From an uncultured virus (IMG/VR IMGVR_UViG_3300024346_006890) (Duplodnaviria > Heunggongvirae > Uroviricota > Caudoviricetes), in IMG/VR virus record IMGVR_UViG_3300024346_006890: DNA of 20,000 bases; one strand, 5' to 3'. The position numbers and the translations under genes are program-made. This document shows positions 1 to 10,597 of this stretch, piece after piece. Numbering within the stretch: the first letter of the stretch is position 1; the number at the start of each line of letters is the position of its first letter. The notes under the pieces are model-generated. The model saw nothing but the letters and a program-made list of their open reading frames with translations, ran no database searches and was not told where the DNA came from.

Positions 1-2
1 AA

Positions 3-2267
3 TCAATAACTCTTAGATTGAAAGACATGGGTGTTAAAGCTAGTTTGCATAGCCAAACTGGCACCTGGAGTAGGGCCGACACTATCGATGTTGATCAGAA
101 AAATTGGGGTTTGTATCGAACTACCTTAGTTGACAATGTCCCCGGTTGGGGATCAGAAAGTGGATCTAGTTCTCAAACGTCAACAATTAATGTGACGCCG
201 TCGGGGAAAGATGTTGATATTGTTGTTTTAGATGAAATGCTTTATCCAAGTCATTCCGAATTCGATTCTCGTGTAGTGCAATATGACTGGTTTGCAAATC
301 ATAACATTGCAGTCTGGCCTGAAAACCCAAATACAAATTATCAATACAATTTTTATTCGGGCGGCAACAACCATGCAACACATGTTGCTGGTATTATCGG
401 TGGAAATACACAAGGCTGGGCTAGAGGTGCCAATCTTTATAATTTCAGGCATGATACATCAGATGTAAATGGAGCACCTGGCGATTATACACCATCACAG
501 TATGTCATCGATTATATTAGAGAATGGCATAACAATAAAAACACAAACCCAGAAACTGGTAGCACTAACCCAACCGTTGTTAACTGTAGCTGGGGTTTAG
601 GCATCGGTGTAAATTATACTAATACAATTACCGGTAGTGGTAATAGTAGATTTAGCGAAATATTTTATAGAGGTTCTGTTGTTACTCCAGAAAGTATTGG
701 ACGAACACCTGTAGACACAGGATTCAGTGGCGTTTGTAATGCTACAACACGACTAGCTACTCTTTCAAATTTAGTCAATGGCGGGAACAGACTTACAACT
801 TCAGGTACTGCAACTGGTGCATGTACATCGATTACGTTAAATTTACAAGGCGATGTCGGCATGACAGACTTAGGTGCACCGACATCATCTTCTGTTGACG
901 GAGTTGATGTGTACGACGATGCGTATTGGTCAGTGACTATCCCATTCACAGTAACGTATTGCGGAGGCGACTACACAACTTGCTCCGTTAGTACTAATAG
1001 TTTTGTAATGTTTGGCGGTAGTGCATCTCAAGGATATACATATATTGTTGGAGCAAGTAGTCCGCCTGCTAGAAAAATTACTATATCAGCCGGTGACCGA
1101 AGTTGTCAAAGACTACTGACTAAGACTACAGGAACTACACCTAATAGAGAATTTACTGTTAGATGGGAAGGGCATGATGCTGCAAACGGCGGATTGCTAG
1201 GCAGTCCTACTACAGTCTGGGAAATAACATTTTACGAAAATACACCTACACAAATTGATTTGCATATTGGGAATAATGCATCATTTAGAGGTGAATTTAC
1301 ATTAGCTGACTTAGAAACTTACGGAATTGTACAAACAGGCTTCGATGCTCCATATCGAGATGCTGCGATGGATGCTGATATCACGGATGCTATAAATGAT
1401 GGTATTATTTTCGTTGGTTCAGCTGGCAACGGCGGATTTAAAGTTGATGTAGCAGGTGGCGGCGACTATAATAACTACTTTGTAGATAACGGCGAACCGT
1501 TTTATTATCATAGAGGGGCAACGCCGTCAGCTAGTCACCCTAATGTTATCTGTGTAGGAGCATTCGATAGCTCCAGTCAAGAAAATAAATCAACAGTTAG
1601 TAATACCGGTCCAAGAGTAGATGTATATGCACCGGGCAAGAATATTATATCGTCAGTGTATGATAGTTTAGGACCAAATGGCGGAAACACTTCTGGTGCT
1701 GTCAACGACGGCAGTGCTATACTTAATACATTAACTTCAGTATCGAGAAATGCAGGGAATACTGCTACAATATTTACTAGTTCACCTCATGGATTAACTG
1801 GGGATCCAATTAGTATTTCTTGCAGCGACTCTACCTTCAACGCTACTATGGTCAGTCCAATCATAACTGGATTACAAACTTTTGAATATACTAATGAAGG
1901 TGCCGAATTGGCGGAAGTTGCTGCTACCGGTACTATAACCGTAGGGTATTTTTATCAAAAGTATAACGGAACTAGTATGTCCGCAGCGCAAGTCACTGGC
2001 ATAACTGCCTTAGCATTAGAAACATATCCAAACATGACTTCGTACGATGCGAAAGAATATATAGTCGGCCATGCGCAGTCTAATAAAATGTTTACAACTG
2101 GAGGCGGCCATACTGATTATACATCACTGCAATCTGGAAATAACAAAATTCTTTATTATTACAAAGAGCGAGCAGATGAAGGTTTGGCATTCCCTAAACT
2201 AAATTGGAAGCTTCGACCGACTACAGGATCTGTATATCCAAGAACACGAATTAGAAAAACTCGCTAA
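3..2267 (+). CDS. Subtilisin-like serine protease (peptidase S8) with inserted beta-domains; 5' end truncated by the window edge
   Basis: Triad motifs DVDIVVLD (~210-233), NHATHVAG (~369-392) and NGTSMS (~1965-1982), plus oxyanion-hole GSAGNG. The frame is open from base 3 (SITLRLKDMG), which aligns with an internal part of the paralog (SVELHPSLKG), so the TTG at 18 is probably not the true start. Confidence 0.9.
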   Translation, partial: SITLRLKDMGVKASLHSQTGTWSRADTIDVDQKNWGLYRTTLVDNVPGWGSESGSSSQTSTINVTPSGKDVDIVVLDEMLYPSHSEFDSRVVQYDWFANHNIAVWPENPNTNYQYNFYSGGNNHATHVAGIIGGNTQGWARGANLYNFRHDTSDVNGAPGDYTPSQYVIDYIREWHNNKNTNPETGSTNPTVVNCSWGLGIGVNYTNTITGSGNSRFSEIFYRGSVVTPESIGRTPVDTGFSGVCNATTRLATLSNLVNGGNRLTTSGTATGACTSITLNLQGDVGMTDLGAPTSSSVDGVDVYDDAYWSVTIPFTVTYCGGDYTTCSVSTNSFVMFGGSASQGYTYIVGASSPPARKITISAGDRSCQRLLTKTTGTTPNREFTVRWEGHDAANGGLLGSPTTVWEITFYENTPTQIDLHIGNNASFRGEFTLADLETYGIVQTGFDAPYRDAAMDADITDAINDGIIFVGSAGNGGFKVDVAGGGDYNNYFVDNGEPFYYHRGATPSASHPNVICVGAFDSSSQENKSTVSNTGPRVDVYAPGKNIISSVYDSLGPNGGNTSGAVNDGSAILNTLTSVSRNAGNTATIFTSSPHGLTGDPISISCSDSTFNATMVSPIITGLQTFEYTNEGAELAEVAATGTITVGYFYQKYNGTSMSAAQVTGITALALETYPNMTSYDAKEYIVGHAQSNKMFTTGGGHTDYTSLQSGNNKILYYYKERADEGLAFPKLNWKLRPTTGSVYPRTRIRKTR

Positions 2268-2278
2268 GGAATTAAAAT

Positions 2279-4954
2279 ATGTCAATGATAGACTATGTTA
2301 AAAAGCGAGAATACATTGTAACATTAAAGAACTTCGAAGACTTAGAAGCATTTTACGCTGAGATGCAAGACTTTGGAAAGTTTCCAGGAAGCTGTGCTCC
2401 TGTTCGAGAAGTCGATTGTATCGAGCAACGACCTAGTAGCAGAAGTACACATTATTTGTTAACTGACTGGGAAGCAAGTGAATTAAGAGACGACATTCGA
2501 GTTCAATCAGTTGAGTTACATCCGTCATTAAAAGGTATAACAGCAGGAGAATTTGCAGCTACAAAAACACAAACTTCTAGTAACTGGAATAAATCAACTA
2601 GTACTAGTAGCAATATGTTAAATTTTGCACTGCTTCGTTGTACAGAAGAAGTAAATAGAGCAGGGTGGGGAAGCGACGGAACACCCAATGCTACAGGAAC
2701 TGTAACATTAAGTGCCACTGGTAAAAATGTCGACGTTGTTATAGTTGACGGGGACGGAGTTGCACTAGGACATCCTGAGTATGCAGTAAACGCAGACGGC
2801 ACAGGTGGAACAAGATTTAATGAATATAACTGGTATCAACATAATTTAGCAGTTAAAGGAACAGCTCCCGGAACTTACACATATAGTCCATCAGTATACA
2901 GTAGTCATGCAACGCATACAACAGGAACTACCGCAGGTAATACGCAAGGATGGGCTAGAGATGCTAATCTTTACAATATATATTATCTAGCAGGTGACGG
3001 AGCAGATTACAACTTTCCTTGGGTTATGGACTATGTTAGAGAATTTCATAGAACTAAATCTATTAATCCGGAAACTGGGCGCAAGAATCCTACAATAACA
3101 AACAATAGCTGGGGAATGAGTATATTTCCGGCAGAATGGTCATTTTCCGATATCACAGCAGTAACTTATAGAGGAACTAGGTACACTCCTAGCGCAGGCG
3201 GTGCAACATATACAGGATATAGCGGAGTTTGTACTTCTAATGCTAGATTGGCTACACTTGTTGGTGAAGAAAATATCGGTAACAGAATTTCAACAGACGG
3301 GCCTTACACTCCGCCATCTGGTTCAATTTTATCTAAACCTACTACTTGGATACAAGAGGGACAATCAGCATACCTTGCAGATTTTGCACAACCGGATCCA
3401 AGTTACGAATTAACTATAAGTGGGCCGGCTGATATTAATTTAATTCATAATGTTGCCATGGACGCTGTTAGTGGTGCTATGTCAATCTCCGGACTTATTA
3501 CCGTTAGAGATCAATCATCAAATATTGTTCATACATTCTCCGATGCTGCAAGCAGCACCGATGGCGGAACTATTGAAATAAACGCATCAGCGACTAATAT
3601 TTCTTTACCTAACATTCAAACTTATACTGTAACATTTGATACAACTATAACTTCCGACGGACAAAATATTACCTATGCCACTGGCATGAGCTTAACTGTT
3701 ATAACAGAATCAACACCTGCAACAGCTACGGTAACAGAAATTACAAATTCGCTATTAGGTGCAGCATCATTAACACCGTCTACTACGCCAACTTCAGGAA
3801 ATAATGATGATGGTTTTTGGGAATTAACGCTACCTTTTAATATTTCATATCTCGGAAACAGTTATAATACAATTTATGTTGGTACTAATTCATATCTTAC
3901 ATTTACAGCAGGATCTGTTGCTTACTCAAGCCTCGGAGCAGCGAATCCTAATTTACCAAAAATAATGTGGAGTTCTGCAGATAACAGTGTTCAGCGTATA
4001 TATTATGGGGTAGAAGGTACTGCTCCAAATAGAGTTTACAGAATAAGAGTAGAAGGCAACGGTGGTGTTAGCGGTACATTAGGATCTCCTAATATGGTGT
4101 CTGAGTACGTTTTCTATGAGGATACTCCTAATCAGATAGATTTACAACTAGGTGCAAATAATAGAAAAACAACATCTAGCGGATTTACTTCAGGACAATT
4201 AAATTCCTGGGGATTTATTTCTGGACAACGTATACCTGCCAGAGTCGCTGCACTAGATGCCGATGTCGAAGATGCTATGGCAGAAGGTATTATCTACGTA
4301 GGAGCAGCTGGTAACGGATTATGGAAACACGATGTGCCGGGCGGTCTTGACTGGAATAATACTTTTGAGATGGGTACTAGATACCCAGGGCAAGTTTATT
4401 ATTACATGAGAGGTTCCAGTCCAACTGCAAATGATACAACTAGTCACCCTGACGGCACTTACGAATTACCAAATATTTGTGTAGGTGCAACAGATTTACA
4501 AACAATCGATCAAAAATCTTACTATAGCGATTGTGGCCCAGGTGTTGATATTTGGGCTCCAGGAACTGGTATATTGAGTGCATATAACTCCGGTGTTTCT
4601 GATCCTAGAAGTACTGGGACGACATATTATCTAGGAAAAATAAACGGAACTAGTATGGCTAGTCCTCAAGTCTGCGGAGTTCTTGCGTGTGCATTAGAAT
4701 TAAATCCTCATTGGAATCAGGTGCAGGCAAAAGCATTTATTACGGGTGTTGCTAAATCGAATCAGGTAATATCTACATCTGGCGGGCCGGCTGATATTAG
4801 AGATACTCAAAATGCTGCTGACAAATTCTTGTTTTACAGGAACGATCGTCCTAGTAGCGGTCAAACTTTACCAAAAAACACACAAGGTGTGCGCCCCAAC
4901 AATGGTTTAGCATGGCCGCGTCCTAAAATTTATAGATACGGTAGTTCATACTAA
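2279..4954 (+). CDS. Subtilisin-like serine protease (peptidase S8), paralog of the upstream gene, with an N-terminal propeptide-like region
   Basis: NVDVVIVDGDG, SHATHTTGT, AAGNG and NGTSMASPQV motifs. The N-terminus EYIVTLK resembles I9-type propeptides. AAGGA RBS just upstream of the ATG. Confidence 0.92.
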   Translation: MSMIDYVKKREYIVTLKNFEDLEAFYAEMQDFGKFPGSCAPVREVDCIEQRPSSRSTHYLLTDWEASELRDDIRVQSVELHPSLKGITAGEFAATKTQTSSNWNKSTSTSSNMLNFALLRCTEEVNRAGWGSDGTPNATGTVTLSATGKNVDVVIVDGDGVALGHPEYAVNADGTGGTRFNEYNWYQHNLAVKGTAPGTYTYSPSVYSSHATHTTGTTAGNTQGWARDANLYNIYYLAGDGADYNFPWVMDYVREFHRTKSINPETGRKNPTITNNSWGMSIFPAEWSFSDITAVTYRGTRYTPSAGGATYTGYSGVCTSNARLATLVGEENIGNRISTDGPYTPPSGSILSKPTTWIQEGQSAYLADFAQPDPSYELTISGPADINLIHNVAMDAVSGAMSISGLITVRDQSSNIVHTFSDAASSTDGGTIEINASATNISLPNIQTYTVTFDTTITSDGQNITYATGMSLTVITESTPATATVTEITNSLLGAASLTPSTTPTSGNNDDGFWELTLPFNISYLGNSYNTIYVGTNSYLTFTAGSVAYSSLGAANPNLPKIMWSSADNSVQRIYYGVEGTAPNRVYRIRVEGNGGVSGTLGSPNMVSEYVFYEDTPNQIDLQLGANNRKTTSSGFTSGQLNSWGFISGQRIPARVAALDADVEDAMAEGIIYVGAAGNGLWKHDVPGGLDWNNTFEMGTRYPGQVYYYMRGSSPTANDTTSHPDGTYELPNICVGATDLQTIDQKSYYSDCGPGVDIWAPGTGILSAYNSGVSDPRSTGTTYYLGKINGTSMASPQVCGVLACALELNPHWNQVQAKAFITGVAKSNQVISTSGGPADIRDTQNAADKFLFYRNDRPSSGQTLPKNTQGVRPNNGLAWPRPKIYRYGSSY

Positions 4955-4997: not shown

Positions 4998-7900
4998 ATG
5001 GCGCTATCTGTATGGACACAATTATCGGGATATAGTTTTGGGACTATAAATGAAAGACAAACTGTTAATATCCCACTTCCCGTTCTGTTTACCGCTAATG
5101 TAACATTTAAAGTTATTAGTGGTAAATTACCACCAGGTTTACGAATTGTAAATAGCAATATTGTCGGTACGCCTTACGAAGTTCCAAGAACTACAGATTT
5201 TAAATTTGTAATACGTGCCAGTAATACAGACGGAATTTCTGATAGAACTTTCTATTTCACAGTAGAAGGCGCCGACGAACCAAATTGGGTCACTCCTACC
5301 GGGCCGTTGCCTGTAGGAAGCAACGATGCATATTATATTTTAGATAGCAGTTATATAGATTTTCAACTAATAGTTAGTGATACAGATACTGCTACTGGAC
5401 AAAAACTTCACTTTTTTATTGCCAGCGACGAAGGCGAACTTCCTCCCGGACTTGTATTAACTACAGAAGGGCGTATTACTGGATTTGTACAACCGTTATT
5501 AGCTGTTCCACTAGCTGCTGGTAGCGGATCGTACGACGAGGGATTGTATGATCAAGTAGCATATGATTTTGGTTATCGACCAAGCAACGGATACGACACT
5601 TACGTATTTGATTTAACAGTATTCGACTTTAGCGTCCCAACCGGTCGACCTAGAAAACTTAATAGAAATTACGAATTCTTAGTAACTGTAACAGACGGTG
5701 ATACTATTGCTAAAAGAAAATTTAGAATATTTGTAGTCGGCGACGATTTCTTTAGAGCAGATAATATTGTTGAGCAAGCAGGAACTGGAGTATACACTGC
5801 TGACATAACTTACGTTAGGGCTCCGATATTTACTACGCCGAACTATTTAGGTTTACGTAGAGCAAACAATTACCAGACGTTTATGATTGAAACATATGAT
5901 GGGTTTACTGATCTAGGACCTATCACGTATCAGTTGTCTGATGTGAATTCTTTAATTAGCGGTATTTGTATTCGAGAATTGCCCACTGATAATATTGTAG
6001 GATCGTTGTTTATAAGATTAGAAAGATCGAGCGATGTGCCACAAGTAGGATACAAGATTAGTTTTAATGGTGAGTTTGACGGTGCTACAGGCGCAATCTA
6101 TGAAATTATAGATGTAGATGTGTTAGGTGGGGATATCTATAGACTCACTTTAGACACTGGGTTAGAAATGACTATTCCTAATAGTACTGGAATATACATG
6201 GGCACAATGTCTGAACTACCACCAAGGATGGAATTTGATTTTACTACTGGAGAAGTATTCGGTGTTGTTCCTTACCAACCAGCAATTACGCAAACTTACC
6301 AGTTTACAATTAAGGCATATCGATTTGGACAAGGCTCTGAAAAAGCAGTTAGTAGACGTGTGTTTACTGTTGACATATTAGGAGAAGTAGAAAGTGTAAT
6401 GAGTTGGATTAGTCCAACAGATTTAGGAACTATAGACTCTGGCTACGTAAGCACACTAGCAATAAAGGCAGCTTCTACATTATCAACTAGTGCAATTCTA
6501 TACACACTAGAAAGTGGCAGACTTCCTTTAGGATTAACTCTAAACTTAGATGGCGAAGTTACTGGAAAGGTTAATCAGTTATCTAGCTTGTTCCGATATA
6601 AAAGTTATTGGAAAAGCTCAACCTCGTACAACCCGCGAGATATTGTAAAAATAAACAACATACGAGGTATTAAGAGTGTAACTAGAAGAAAAAATATAGC
6701 TAGTGTTGTAACCAGCGTTGATCACGATTTCTTAACGGGCGACTTAGTTGAAATTGTGTCAGATGATTTAGGATTTAATTACTACAATGCAGTTGAGGTA
6801 GATATTTCTCCTATACAATTAGAATCATTTACTAGTATTACAGGATCCGGGCCTTATAGAATAACATTTGCAATACCTACTCAGAAAATTGCTCCATTGG
6901 CTCCTGTAGTTACATTAATAAGCGGAACAGCAATTTCAACTGCACCTGCTGTTTATAATAATGTTTCTGCATCAAGCTCAACAGGTTTGGGTACCGGTGC
7001 ACGATTTAGAGTTGAAAAAGGAAACAACGGAATTTTAGGCACACCGACATATGTTGGAGTGACAACAATATCATTGCTAGATCCCGGAACTGGGTATCTC
7101 CCAGGCGATAGGATAACTATTTCTGGTGCTGATCTCGGAGGGACTAACGGAACACACGATTTAACATTTACAACATCCACCGGTCTTGAATTTTATTACA
7201 GGATCAACGGAAACAGTAATACTAATTTCAATGGAAGATTCTTTGCAACATCTTCAACATCGAGTAGTATAACATTAAACTTCGAAGAAGATCCGGGAAC
7301 TTGGGGTTCAGGCACTATTAGTGTTACAACTGGTCCTGGCACCTATGAAGGACAAACTTTAATAATACCAGTAAACTACTTTAACTATCCAAATAAAGGC
7401 AAATCGTTATCGATGAAGGTAGCTAGCGGTACTACTTACAATGCTCCAATATATTACAAGGCAAATACTGCACACACTTCAGGATTAACATTTAACGCCG
7501 TTTACTGGGATCTATATCGGTTCCCTGAAGAAGATTTGTCATTAACTACTTTTGATCAGGGAAGTTTAACAATTGACGGTAACGAAACTTCGTTAGATAG
7601 AAAATACACGTTTACAGTACATGCTAGAGATCAATTAGGTTATAGTGCTGTTACTAAAACATTTACCTTAACTGTTAATACACCTAACGATACTTACTAC
7701 AGTAATATTAGTACTCGTCCATTTTTAAAACTTGAACAACGAGATATGTTCAAGGAATTTATAAATGACCCTTCTGTGTTTAATCCATCATTAATTTACA
7801 GGCCAACAGATACATACTTTGGGATACAACGAGATTTAAGGATGTTAGTGTTTGCAGGAATAGAAACTAAGTCTGCCGCAGAGTATGTAAGTGCGATGGG

Positions 7901-8540
7901 TAGAAATCACAGGACTAAGAGATTTAAATTTGGCGAAGTTAAGAAAGCAGTTGCTAAAACTCCAGGTACTAACGATGTAATTTACGAAGTGATATACTTA
8001 GAAATGTTAGACCCTCTAGAAAAAGATGGTAAACATTTACCGCTATCGCTTAAATTAAATTCGTCTAATGTGCAAATAAAAGTAGACCAAACTGGAGAAT
8101 TTTATAAAGGACCATTTGATACAGTTAACCCATACTGGAAACGTCCAATACCTTTATATGCGACAATAGACAGGAATGACATTTTTGCTGGCGACTCTGG
8201 TTCAAGAATTAAATTGCCATCGAGCATTAGTTTATGGCGGTATCGAATTAAAAATATGACTAACACCCAAAGTGAAAGAAACTACTTACCGCTTTGGATG
8301 CGTAGTATTCAACCGGAACAAACCCAAGAAATCAACTTTGTTCCAGCAGTACCATTATGTTACTGCAAACCAGGTGGAGCAGATGAGATTATACTGAATA
8401 TAAAAAATTATATTAAAAATAACCCATTTAACTTCAATTTATTAGATTATACCGTTGACAGATATATAATAGATTCTGTCGAGGGTGAGTACACAGATAA
8501 ATATCTTGTATTTAGAAACGATAGGACTACAATAACATGA
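4998..8540 (+). CDS. Large virion structural protein (baseplate/tail-associated candidate) with putative Ig (He_PIG-like) repeats
   Basis: 1180 aa with four SGxLPxGLxL...G-type repeats (SGKLPPGLRI, EGELPPGLVL, SELPPRMEF, SGRLPLGLTL), each followed by FxFxIxA-type strands. Beta-rich Thr/Gly centre and GGAG RBS. Confidence 0.7.
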   Translation: MALSVWTQLSGYSFGTINERQTVNIPLPVLFTANVTFKVISGKLPPGLRIVNSNIVGTPYEVPRTTDFKFVIRASNTDGISDRTFYFTVEGADEPNWVTPTGPLPVGSNDAYYILDSSYIDFQLIVSDTDTATGQKLHFFIASDEGELPPGLVLTTEGRITGFVQPLLAVPLAAGSGSYDEGLYDQVAYDFGYRPSNGYDTYVFDLTVFDFSVPTGRPRKLNRNYEFLVTVTDGDTIAKRKFRIFVVGDDFFRADNIVEQAGTGVYTADITYVRAPIFTTPNYLGLRRANNYQTFMIETYDGFTDLGPITYQLSDVNSLISGICIRELPTDNIVGSLFIRLERSSDVPQVGYKISFNGEFDGATGAIYEIIDVDVLGGDIYRLTLDTGLEMTIPNSTGIYMGTMSELPPRMEFDFTTGEVFGVVPYQPAITQTYQFTIKAYRFGQGSEKAVSRRVFTVDILGEVESVMSWISPTDLGTIDSGYVSTLAIKAASTLSTSAILYTLESGRLPLGLTLNLDGEVTGKVNQLSSLFRYKSYWKSSTSYNPRDIVKINNIRGIKSVTRRKNIASVVTSVDHDFLTGDLVEIVSDDLGFNYYNAVEVDISPIQLESFTSITGSGPYRITFAIPTQKIAPLAPVVTLISGTAISTAPAVYNNVSASSSTGLGTGARFRVEKGNNGILGTPTYVGVTTISLLDPGTGYLPGDRITISGADLGGTNGTHDLTFTTSTGLEFYYRINGNSNTNFNGRFFATSSTSSSITLNFEEDPGTWGSGTISVTTGPGTYEGQTLIIPVNYFNYPNKGKSLSMKVASGTTYNAPIYYKANTAHTSGLTFNAVYWDLYRFPEEDLSLTTFDQGSLTIDGNETSLDRKYTFTVHARDQLGYSAVTKTFTLTVNTPNDTYYSNISTRPFLKLEQRDMFKEFINDPSVFNPSLIYRPTDTYFGIQRDLRMLVFAGIETKSAAEYVSAMGRNHRTKRFKFGEVKKAVAKTPGTNDVIYEVIYLEMLDPLEKDGKHLPLSLKLNSSNVQIKVDQTGEFYKGPFDTVNPYWKRPIPLYATIDRNDIFAGDSGSRIKLPSSISLWRYRIKNMTNTQSERNYLPLWMRSIQPEQTQEINFVPAVPLCYCKPGGADEIILNIKNYIKNNPFNFNLLDYTVDRYIIDSVEGEYTDKYLVFRNDRTTIT
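8498..8503 (+). promoter_or_regulatory. TAAATA motif, candidate late promoter for the 8537 gene
   Basis: GATAAATA inside the 3' end of the upstream gene, 33 nt before the ATG at 8537, followed by an AGGA RBS. Confidence 0.4.
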
Positions 8541-10096: not shown

Positions 10097-10597
10097 ATGA
10101 GAATTGACAAATTTGGTAATCCTATACATCAAGAGCAAGATCTTATCGATTTAATTTATAATAATAAAATCGATTACATTGATAAGATCGCTATCGACGA
10201 TACTGACTCAATTAAAGAATTTGCAAAAAACTGCGAATTAAATCTTAAAGTTTATCAAGATATTGATATAAGCGTATCAGAGTTTGACAAAATTTGTCAA
10301 TCTGAATGGTTTATTCCCAACGAATATAAAACTATGGATATCGAAGGTTTTTTAGTTGATCGATGCCCTAAGCAAAACTACCAACGCCTAATCGAAGAAC
10401 TACAAGAATATAAATCTAGAAATATGCTTGATTTATTAAAATGGTTGAAATATATCGTCGATACCTGTAAAGCAAACAATATTATCTGGGGAGTAGGACG
10501 TGGAAGTAGTGTTGCTAGTTACGTCTTATATCTTATCGGAGTACACAAAATTGACAGTTTAAAGTATAATTTAGACTGGCACGAATTCTTGAGATAA
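10097..10597 (+). CDS. Stand-alone fragment of DNA polymerase III alpha subunit (DnaE-like, GRGS region)
   Basis: The C-terminal half, RLIEELQEY...YIVDTCKANNIIWGVGRGSSVASYVLYLIGVHKIDSLKYNLDWHEFLR, matches the DnaE pattern GxGRGSxxGSLVAYxLGITxxDPLxxxLxFERFL. The protein is only 166 aa. Confidence 0.85.
   Translation: MRIDKFGNPIHQEQDLIDLIYNNKIDYIDKIAIDDTDSIKEFAKNCELNLKVYQDIDISVSEFDKICQSEWFIPNEYKTMDIEGFLVDRCPKQNYQRLIEELQEYKSRNMLDLLKWLKYIVDTCKANNIIWGVGRGSSVASYVLYLIGVHKIDSLKYNLDWHEFLR

Follow-up and report, generated by a model that had tools for sequence, protein, structure and literature searches.

We analysed a stretch of 20,000 nucleotides (the window) of the uncultured virus record IMGVR_UViG_3300024346_006890 (Caudoviricetes), in which an open reading frame at 4998..8540 on the + strand encodes P0001, a protein of 1180 amino acids (residue n starts at position 4998+3(n-1)). 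P0001 is preceded by two tandem genes for S8 peptidases, both assigned to phrog_9158: protease 1 (P0003; 3-2267, open at its 5' end) and, between it and P0001, protease 2 (2279-4954). It is followed by its downstream partner P0004 (8537..9856, + strand, 439 amino acids), the start of which overlaps the P0001 stop. A preliminary description, made from the sequence alone, had proposed that part of P0001 consists of domains inserted one inside another, so that the chain runs out and back through a series of split modules. All nine peptide strings that it quoted were found in this reading frame, where it had placed them.

Based on alignments of homologues and on predicted structures, we conclude that residues ~468-896 of P0001 form a four-level nested insertion of five domains, and on these two kinds of evidence we regard the nest as confirmed. 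The order along the chain is an immunoglobulin (Ig)/cadherin-like domain, a CBM5/12-like module, an FCCH-like barrel (L2), a second FCCH-like barrel (L3) and a contiguous module of ~94 amino acids (L4), followed by the second parts of the interrupted domains in reverse order. All four layers named in the preliminary description proved to be real, and an outer Ig layer was added to them.

P0001 homologues with and without the insert

Because P0001 matched no family in Pfam (E<=0.01) or PHROGs (default thresholds), and pairwise BLAST against the two proteases and P0004 gave nothing significant (best E 0.26), the proposed pattern could not be confirmed by look-up and homologues were needed. A phmmer search of P0001 against the PDB returned chance-level matches only, as did a search with the P0001-family profile. 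In a word-indexed search we obtained 1960 homologues (E<=0.001), all unnamed or called 'hypothetical protein', and we examined the best 120 (P0001 itself and 119 homologues).

The 120 family members were in one of three states at a loop of the fourth Ig-like domain. Twenty-five had no insert, so that '...GEIVGKVNQFG' ran straight on into the last strands of the domain. Eight had the CBM only, as an uninterrupted module of ~40 residues with the pattern W...Y...D.V...Y.A...W (in tandem in two of the eight). The remaining 87 had the full nest, with the CBM-like module broken after 'V K x N N' by ~254-356 residues. Shorter homologues without the inner layers, which the preliminary description had predicted, thus make up 33 of the 120.

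The outer layers: an Ig-like domain and a split CBM5/12-like module

The CBM5/12-like module and its contents occupy a loop of an Ig domain which the short forms have in one piece, and the nest therefore has one more layer than the preliminary description had listed. The two parts of this outermost layer (Layer 0; Ig/cadherin-like, He_PIG-type) are at 6399..6572 (+ strand; residues ~468-525) and 7533..7685 (+ strand; residues ~846-896). Both were placed by structural alignment with VIA-align (below), and the second also by alignment to the uninterrupted Ig domain of homologues of 784-880 amino acids. Nine of the ten family members that were scanned passed the cutoff of the He_PIG profile (PF05345, cutoff 24 bits) with 38-63 bits, and P0001 had no match to this profile at E<=1.

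The next layer (Layer 1) is a CBM5/12-like module in two halves, at 6597..6662 (+ strand; residues 534-555) and 7446..7517 (+ strand; residues 817-840). A hidden Markov model (HMM) built from ten uninterrupted CBM-like modules of shorter homologues matched P0001 in two pieces that complement each other: positions 1-22 of the HMM fell on residues 534-555, and positions 22-43 on residues 818-840. The peptides that had drawn attention to the two halves, WKSSTSYNPRDIVKINN (residues 538-554, 6609-6659) and IYYKANTAHTSGLTFNAVYW (residues 818-837, 7449-7508), lie within these pieces. Both halves, at an independent E-value (i-E) <1 and 254-356 amino acids apart, were found in 49 of the 87 long homologues and in none of 435 shuffled sequences, which supports the original proposal of two CBM5/12-like halves.

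Joined, the halves in P0001 give the W-x5-Y ... Y-x-A ... W pattern of CBM5/12 (PF02839) with its aromatic residues conserved, and W538, Y543 and W837 are each conserved in at least 90% of long forms. Unlike the usual CBM5/12, the P0001 module has 263 residues, some six times its own length, inserted at its hairpin. Among the uninterrupted orthologous modules, that of P0098 passed the CBM_5_12 cutoff of 26.2 bits (59.3 bits), and those of P0090 (19.6 bits) and P0111 (15.4 bits) were below it. Strands of the module are predicted at residues 533-537, from 548, up to 822, and at 837-839, in a module that is too small for a ranked fold match to a solved CBM5/12.

The inner layers occur uninterrupted in other proteins

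The first of the inner layers, L2, comprises 6663..6809 (+ strand; residues ~556-604) and 7356..7445 (+ strand; residues ~787-816). Its halves contain the peptides SVTRRK...GFN (residues 560-594, 6675-6779) and YFNYPN...ASGT (residues 794-812, 7377-7433), which the preliminary description had recognized as contiguous in protease 1. In a search of three proteins only, the family profile of residues 556-604 matched protease 1 at residues 577-614 (i-E 5e-6) and that of residues 786-816 matched it, weakly, at residues 621-646 (i-E 1.2e-3). The two matches are adjacent, 6 residues apart in protease 1 vs ~185 in P0001, in agreement with the early observation. They define an uninterrupted FCCH-like module at 1731..1940 (+ strand; P0003 residues 577-646), within the Peptidase_S8 domain.

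An exhaustive HMMER search with the 263-residue insert found 72 proteins at E<=1e-3 and separated two recurrent modules. The first is L3, which in P0001 is at 6810..6905 (+ strand; residues ~605-636) and 7188..7355 (+ strand; residues ~731-786, with an approximate boundary to L2). Its two pieces, 'SFTS.TGSGPY.VTF.IPTQ' and 'Y.I.GNSN..YNG.Y.A..S...SIT..Y..DPGTYG.GT', are ~94 residues apart in P0001; in 14 of 70 unrelated proteins, which have 16 such units, only 2-11 residues separate them. The second is L4, the innermost and uninterrupted module (6906..7187, + strand; residues ~637-730), with the motif G.G.GA ... G.GY..GD.ITI.G..LGG. L4 is free-standing in 55 of the 70 proteins (99 stretches), among them a tail-sheath protein (P0136) and a Phage_tail_L protein (P0146). 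These results bear out the suggestion that a third unit encloses a fourth. Outside the P0001 family, the proteins matched by the insert search contained L3 and L4 only separately, and in none was L4 inside L3.

All six PDB matches to the L4 profile (E 0.03-0.33) were to the T4-type sheath protein gp18 and covered its residues 93-119, with which domain I starts. Matches to the Pfam profile Gp18_dom_I (PF22639) below its cutoff, at profile positions ~2-24 of 93, were found in 4 of the 18 L3- or L4-bearing proteins scanned, and none spanned the domain. For L4, six strands and one short helix are predicted, as has been described for gp18 domain I (PMC3004832). We treat a relationship between the two as a marginal lead only. 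L4 by itself gave a single kind of match in the PDB, a low-complexity-like match to SraP (E 0.02), and a search of the ESM Atlas with L4 found unnamed clusters only. There was no match in P0001 to E1_FCCH (PF16190, cutoff 29.5 bits), and we therefore call L2 and L3 FCCH-like folds and not members of the family.

Predicted structures support single folds made from distant segments

We predicted the structure of residues 462-900 with AlphaFold2 from 65 sequences. The model had a mean predicted local distance difference test score (pLDDT) of 89.8 and a predicted TM-score (pTM) of 0.70, with unusually long strands at residues 548-564 and 804-822; a model of residues 600-795 had a pLDDT of 94.1 and a pTM of 0.86. 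Both were compared with 48,161 chains by VIA-align, for which the ranges below give the first and last aligned residue only. Single Ig domains (SraP, cadherin) aligned with 83-100 residues over model residues 2..435 (Z 9-10.3; SraP and cadherin matches overall, Z 8.6-10.3), the best being SraP 4m00_A (Z 10.3, root-mean-square deviation (rmsd) 2.4, 89 residues over 3..435). L2 aligned with the FCCH domain of UBA1 at 77-79 residues over 91..355/357 (9mc4_A, Z 9.5, rmsd 3.0, 79 residues over 91..357; 4p22_B, Z 9.3). L3, in the inner model, aligned with the same domain at 78-79 residues across 2..195 with Z 8.1-8.2 (4p22_B, Z 8.2, rmsd 2.6, 78 residues over 3..194; 9mc4_A, Z 8.1); 2v31 followed with Z 7.5. 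The matches assign both L2 and L3, as predicted, to the six-stranded closed beta-barrel fold, and other barrels (flavin reductase type, Sf6 I-domain) ranked below FCCH at Z 6-7.9. Since single domains matched over ranges of 190-430 residues, the three hosts are predicted to be single folds made from distant segments, and L2 and L3 are both predicted to be FCCH-like barrels, interrupted at different loops.

With an independent predictor, we folded the outgoing segment (residues 530-604) and the returning segment (786-842) as two separate chains. The score was 0.74, vs 0.00 for the best of three controls; the mark used for this score was attained by 116 of 157 solved complexes and by 2 of 215 mismatched pairs. 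Separate runs agreed in at least 97% of contacts, and the pLDDT of the partner was at least 86. The most confident contacts were antiparallel, with a nearly constant index sum (540:828, 544:826, 550:820, 558:811, 568:797 and 570:795), as the preliminary description had anticipated. In the first CBM half the predicted contacts are to residues 819-832, and residues 819-828 of the second half contact 540-550; in L2, residues 795-797 contact 567-570 and 811-812 contact 558. The predicted contacts form one continuous two-stranded ladder from the CBM into L2.

We weighed these results against a beads-on-a-string arrangement, in which consecutive domains follow one another and the look-alike halves are unrelated short strands or linkers. 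Such an arrangement would agree with the lack of a Pfam match to P0001 at E<=0.01, with the lack of a Foldseek match in the PDB for either model, and with the continuous fit of an HMM for uninterrupted FCCH sequences to residues 563-612. It is contradicted by the alignment of single Ig and FCCH domains across 190-430 residues, by the antiparallel contacts predicted between the outgoing and returning segments (0.74 vs 0.00), and by the absence of paired CBM halves from all 435 shuffles. Uninterrupted versions of every host also exist elsewhere: the Ig domain and the CBM in shorter orthologues, L2 in protease 1, and L3, like the guest L4, in other proteins. For the Ig domain, L2, L3 and the CBM/L2 halves, a host that is split in sequence is predicted, although not by experiment, to be one fold. 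The beads-on-a-string arrangement is thus largely refuted, and we consider it very improbable.

Orthologues and the history of the insert

The long and short forms of P0001 are positional orthologues. Related viral loci were collected by an alignment-based scan of viral contigs; a scan with the single protein found, beyond the window's own record, one weak locus only. In all 80 related loci (19 with the nest and 61 without), the P0004 homologue starts -10 to +60 nucleotides from the end of the P0001 homologue. An S8 protease gene lies upstream in 18 of the 19 nest loci and in 28 of the 45 non-nest loci with enough upstream sequence. Based on these shared neighbours on both sides, we conclude that the two forms are orthologous by position.

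A tree of the flanking columns only (IQ-TREE, quick mode) contained 64 rows: all 33 short forms, 30 of the 87 long forms, and the distant member P0129, whose branch is very long. All 33 short forms were on one side of a starred branch (95 in the Shimodaira-Hasegawa-like approximate likelihood ratio test, SH-aLRT), and the full nest needed one change on the tree. The 'CBM only' state needed four changes, at least three of them forced by starred branches, and the CBM-only forms were scattered inside the no-insert clade. There were no nests of intermediate depth among the 120 family members (the best 120 of 1960). In P0129, L2-L3-L4 lies directly in the Ig loop without either CBM half. Judged from these sequences, the L2-L3-L4 block was probably gained or lost in a single step, and the data fit either direction. 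The preliminary description had spoken of repeated insertion; as a history this was not upheld, as there are three states only, without intermediate depths, and the single change on the tree does not distinguish gain from loss.

The nest might instead have been built layer by layer within the P0001 gene, by insertion of the CBM into the Ig domain, L2 into the CBM, and then L3 and L4, with the intermediates extinct or unsampled. The no-insert and CBM-only forms at the same locus are consistent with such a history, as are loops that still take additions (P0018, P0063, P0078, P0081, P0084 and P0093), and the separate occurrence of L3 and L4 outside the family implies that L4 entered L3 somewhere on this lineage. 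However, none of the 120 members is of intermediate depth, the CBM-only forms are not adjacent to the nest forms on the tree, and P0129 carries the three inner layers without a CBM. We consider stepwise construction unlikely.

A further possibility is that L2-L3-L4 forms a prefabricated nested cassette, which is transferred whole from one beta-hairpin 'socket' to another in different host domains. This was suggested by the position of the block, which occupies the hairpin of the CBM5/12 module in 87 members and, in P0129, the Ig loop itself, and the same sockets take further plug-ins in the six proteins named above. We offer it tentatively, as an idea with the odds somewhat against it.

The additional modules in these loops differ from protein to protein. 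L4 is in tandem in P0018. An extra uninterrupted FCCH-like barrel is found within L3 in P0063 and P0078 (in P0078 it matches Pfam E1_FCCH with E 2.5e-5, 24.7 bits). An extra module of ~60 amino acids precedes L4 in P0081, P0084 and P0093, and P0093 also has an extra barrel between L3 and L2.

Possible function of the nest

Several features suggest that P0001 is located in the virion. These are the families of its modules (Ig-like, CBM5/12 and outward-facing FCCH), the occurrence of L3 and L4 in sheath, tail, cyanophage fibre or structural proteins, the partner protein P0004 with its conserved N-terminus and variable remainder, and a C-terminal domain shared with the C-terminus of an S8 'proteinase' of phage Atu_ph07 that is encoded near a 'tail fiber protein' gene. 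Fold matches in BFVD were to cyanophage proteins called 'Tail protein', 'Fiber', 'Structural protein' and 'Virion protein' (E 1.5e-4 to 8e-3), and FCCH domains are described as facing outwards on siphophage tail tubes (PMC13576161).

The C-terminal domain of P0001 (residues 867-1126; 7596-8375) resembles the C-terminus of the ~1250-amino-acid S8 'serine proteinase' of the jumbo phages Atu_ph07 and Phosso, with 24.6-25.4% identity (E 4e-9 and 7e-8), and in Atu_ph07 the gene is two genes upstream of that for the 'tail fiber protein'. In P0004, which is directly downstream in 80 of 80 loci, the first ~100-150 residues are conserved among homologues and the remainder is variable, a layout that is the pattern of a fibre or receptor-binding partner. 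P0004 matched no Pfam or PHROGs family, and PHROGs even at E<=1 gave nothing usable.

We propose that P0001 is an exposed protein on the tail or baseplate side of the virion. By comparison and prediction, the outgoing chain passes through the first part of the Ig domain, half of the ~45-residue CBM5/12 module, the first parts of L2 and L3 and the whole of the ~94-residue L4, and then returns through the second parts in reverse order. Each guest sits in a beta-hairpin or loop of its host and is so tied by two antiparallel strands while the host still closes around it, and from the CBM to L2 the tethering strands form one continuous ladder. As a doubly tethered and fairly stiff probe, the nest would keep L4 and the barrels at a distance from the Ig scaffold, and this probe may bind glycans of the host surface or of particles, or another part of the virion. 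The nest itself is accessory, to judge from the orthologues, because they lack it. Its probable role is to present a binding module at a distance from the virus particle. That this module is for weak surface or glycan binding is the use we prefer, at somewhat less than even odds. The stalk of the preliminary description is only partly supported, by the continuous two-stranded ladder that links the CBM and L2, and the adhesive appendage of which it spoke is a putative one.

As the main alternative, the nest could be real and yet not adhesive: it may serve in assembly or as a spacer and bind another part of the virion, or it may work with the two adjacent S8 proteases. T4 gp18 domain I, which binds the baseplate and the retracted fibres (PMC3004832), provides one argument: the L4 profile matches only T4-type gp18 at the start of that domain (6 of 6 PDB matches, E 0.03-0.33). 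The proteases provide others, with S8 protease genes upstream in 46 of the 64 loci with room for them, the same FCCH-like module in protease 1, and the P0001 C-terminal domain fused to an S8 protease in Atu_ph07 and Phosso. The gp18 match is, however, marginal and covers 27 residues only, and orthologues without any nest fit an accessory role better than a role in assembly. Domains of the CBM5/12 and Ig-like families, moreover, are usually carbohydrate or surface binders. We think such an assembly role improbable and continue to favour a doubly tethered probe.

Other features of the locus and its surroundings

Insertion of domains affects the neighbouring enzymes too, as an FCCH-like barrel lies inside protease 1, where it directly precedes the 'GTSMS' serine motif. 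In each protease the Pfam S8 match is broken into two stretches by large inserts. The end of P0001 (8495-8540) reads '...DKYLVFRNDRTTIT', and protease 2 has 'FLFYRNDRPSSG' at 4790-4830, ~35 residues before its end. The 'F/Y-R-N-D-R' motif common to the two was also the most conserved pattern picked by the scan of viral loci, and it may be a common assembly or anchoring strand.

By eye, P0001 residues ~315-400 (5940-6200; 'VGYKISFNG...YEIIDVDVLGGDIYRLTLD') resemble a small barrel that interrupts the third Ig-like repeat, with 'ITYQLS' before it and 'LPPRMEFD' after it; such a barrel would be a separate, single-level insertion. P0174 (256 amino acids), also judged by eye, resembles the P0001 C-terminal domain ('...PNWMKTSQ...DRLLLKD...DKYIYF') with an L3 barrel inserted near its end. 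An open frame of 2527 amino acids in the nearest record of the window's phage (G001) contains a second L4-like module (G001:C1:7116-7343, L085; E 1.2e-14), located ~13.6 kb upstream of the L4 in the window.

The DNA of the window is that of a phage, and nearly all of its genes lie on the + strand. They include those for a clamp loader, a GroES-like protein, MazG, PhoH, dCMP deaminase and two 'virion structural protein' families, as well as holin/spanin-like genes. The clamp loader is nearest to those of PA5oct-like Pseudomonas jumbo phages (51.8% amino acid identity) and of Sinorhizobium phage Phosso (45%). P0001 homologues were found on contigs as long as 351-383 kb, which makes an uncultured large myovirus the probable source. 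At 10097-10597, an open reading frame of 166 amino acids has matches to DNA polymerase families (phrog_11127, E 1e-41) at their end only, and it may be a split or fragmentary polymerase gene.

Discussion

Recursive domain insertion is documented and is uncommon beyond one level (PMC13114784). In a survey of 2.7 million domains, most insertions were of a single level and guests typically had fewer residues than their hosts (a median of 115 against 199; PMC13114784). The phage protein closest to P0001 in this respect is T4 gp18, in which domain I is inserted in domain II, II in domain III, and III between the termini that form domain IV, with the innermost domain pointing outward (PMC3004832). 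Like gp18, P0001 is a phage protein with recursive insertion, and L4 shares a 27-residue motif, marginally (E 0.03), with the start of gp18 domain I. Whereas gp18 has three levels and hosts of 150-250 residues, P0001 has four levels, very small hosts (~45, 80 and 90 residues) and other folds, and it has no sheath domain.

The Si3 region of the cyanobacterial RNA polymerase beta' subunit (RpoC2) is another case, with recursive nesting of SBHM domains, up to six levels deep, in an elongated appendage (PMC13114784). P0001 resembles Si3 in its A1-B1-C-B2-A2 nesting of small beta-domains, and an Si3 structure (8emb_D, E 3.7e-2) was among the weak Foldseek matches. Si3 repeats one fold within an essential enzyme, whereas P0001 nests four folds (Ig, CBM5/12, FCCH-like twice, and L4) in an accessory part that is absent from orthologues. 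L2 and L3 are like the FCCH decoration domains of phage tail tubes and the FCCH domain of E1 in being six-stranded barrels (Z 8.1-9.5 to UBA1 FCCH). Those domains are terminal and uninterrupted, whereas P0001 has two copies, each interrupted, in different loops, and below the Pfam cutoff.

Among the titles listed in a literature search on nested insertion and bacteriophage there was no paper on the P0001 family, for which no search by name was made, as it has none. Recursive insertion itself is rare but known; distinctive here are the four levels, the four different small folds, hosts far outsized by their guests, and a natural series of orthologues, some of which have the layers and some not.

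We assign a probability of roughly 0.78 to our reading as a whole, namely that P0001 contains the nest, that it has a role as an exposed virion probe, and that the L2-L3-L4 block came or went in a single step. Several points weigh against it. At the sequence level, 38 of the 87 long forms do not show the two CBM halves together at i-E <1, Pfam CBM_5_12 (PF02839) matches only the first half in P0001 (profile positions 2-18, 15.8 bits, below the cutoff of 26.2), and P0001 matches no Pfam or PHROGs family at the default thresholds. BLAST of the returning L2 half against protease 1 gave E 0.26, and an HMM of four uninterrupted FCCH-like modules runs continuously through residues 563-612, its match to the returning half being not significant (E 3.9). 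Among the structural results, Foldseek of both AlphaFold2 models against the PDB gave no match at E<=1e-3. The VIA-align Z values of 8-10 are only slightly above the tool's stated background of 7-8, and its aligned ranges are defined by their end residues alone. The two-chain score expresses how confident the model itself was, and it came from two pieces of a single chain and a custom alignment. The tree, effectively unrooted, covers 30 of the 87 long forms, with a very long outgroup branch (4.05) and a support of 62 for the 'nest only' branch. Finally, the place of P0001 in the virion is a putative one, and no usable family was found for its C-terminal domain in PHROGs at E<=1 (N- and C-terminal parts), in the PDB with the family profile, or in the ESM Atlas.

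Two other origins of the insert were considered and rejected. An intein or mobile element was rejected, as the insert is made up solely of beta-modules that occur in virion proteins; the possibility of an assembly chimera was rejected, as the architecture is common to 87 homologues and 19 independent loci.

The P0001 family is a natural series at one conserved locus, with no insert, one layer or four layers, plus plug-in variants. Within it, a CBM5/12 module of ~45 residues and barrels of ~80 residues tolerate guests several times their own size. The family therefore lends itself to testing how small beta-domains can fold when they carry large inserts, and to testing structure predictors and domain parsers built on the assumption that domains are contiguous; it is also a possible template for display scaffolds tethered by two strands.

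The analysis also flags an abundant unannotated family (1960 matches) of likely surface proteins in uncultured large phages, with modules in common with tail sheaths and cyanophage fibres. If L2-L3-L4 is indeed a mobile cassette, large phages would have in it a natural plug-in system for lengthening their surface probes and giving them new tips, while the anchoring ends of the protein are left undisturbed.

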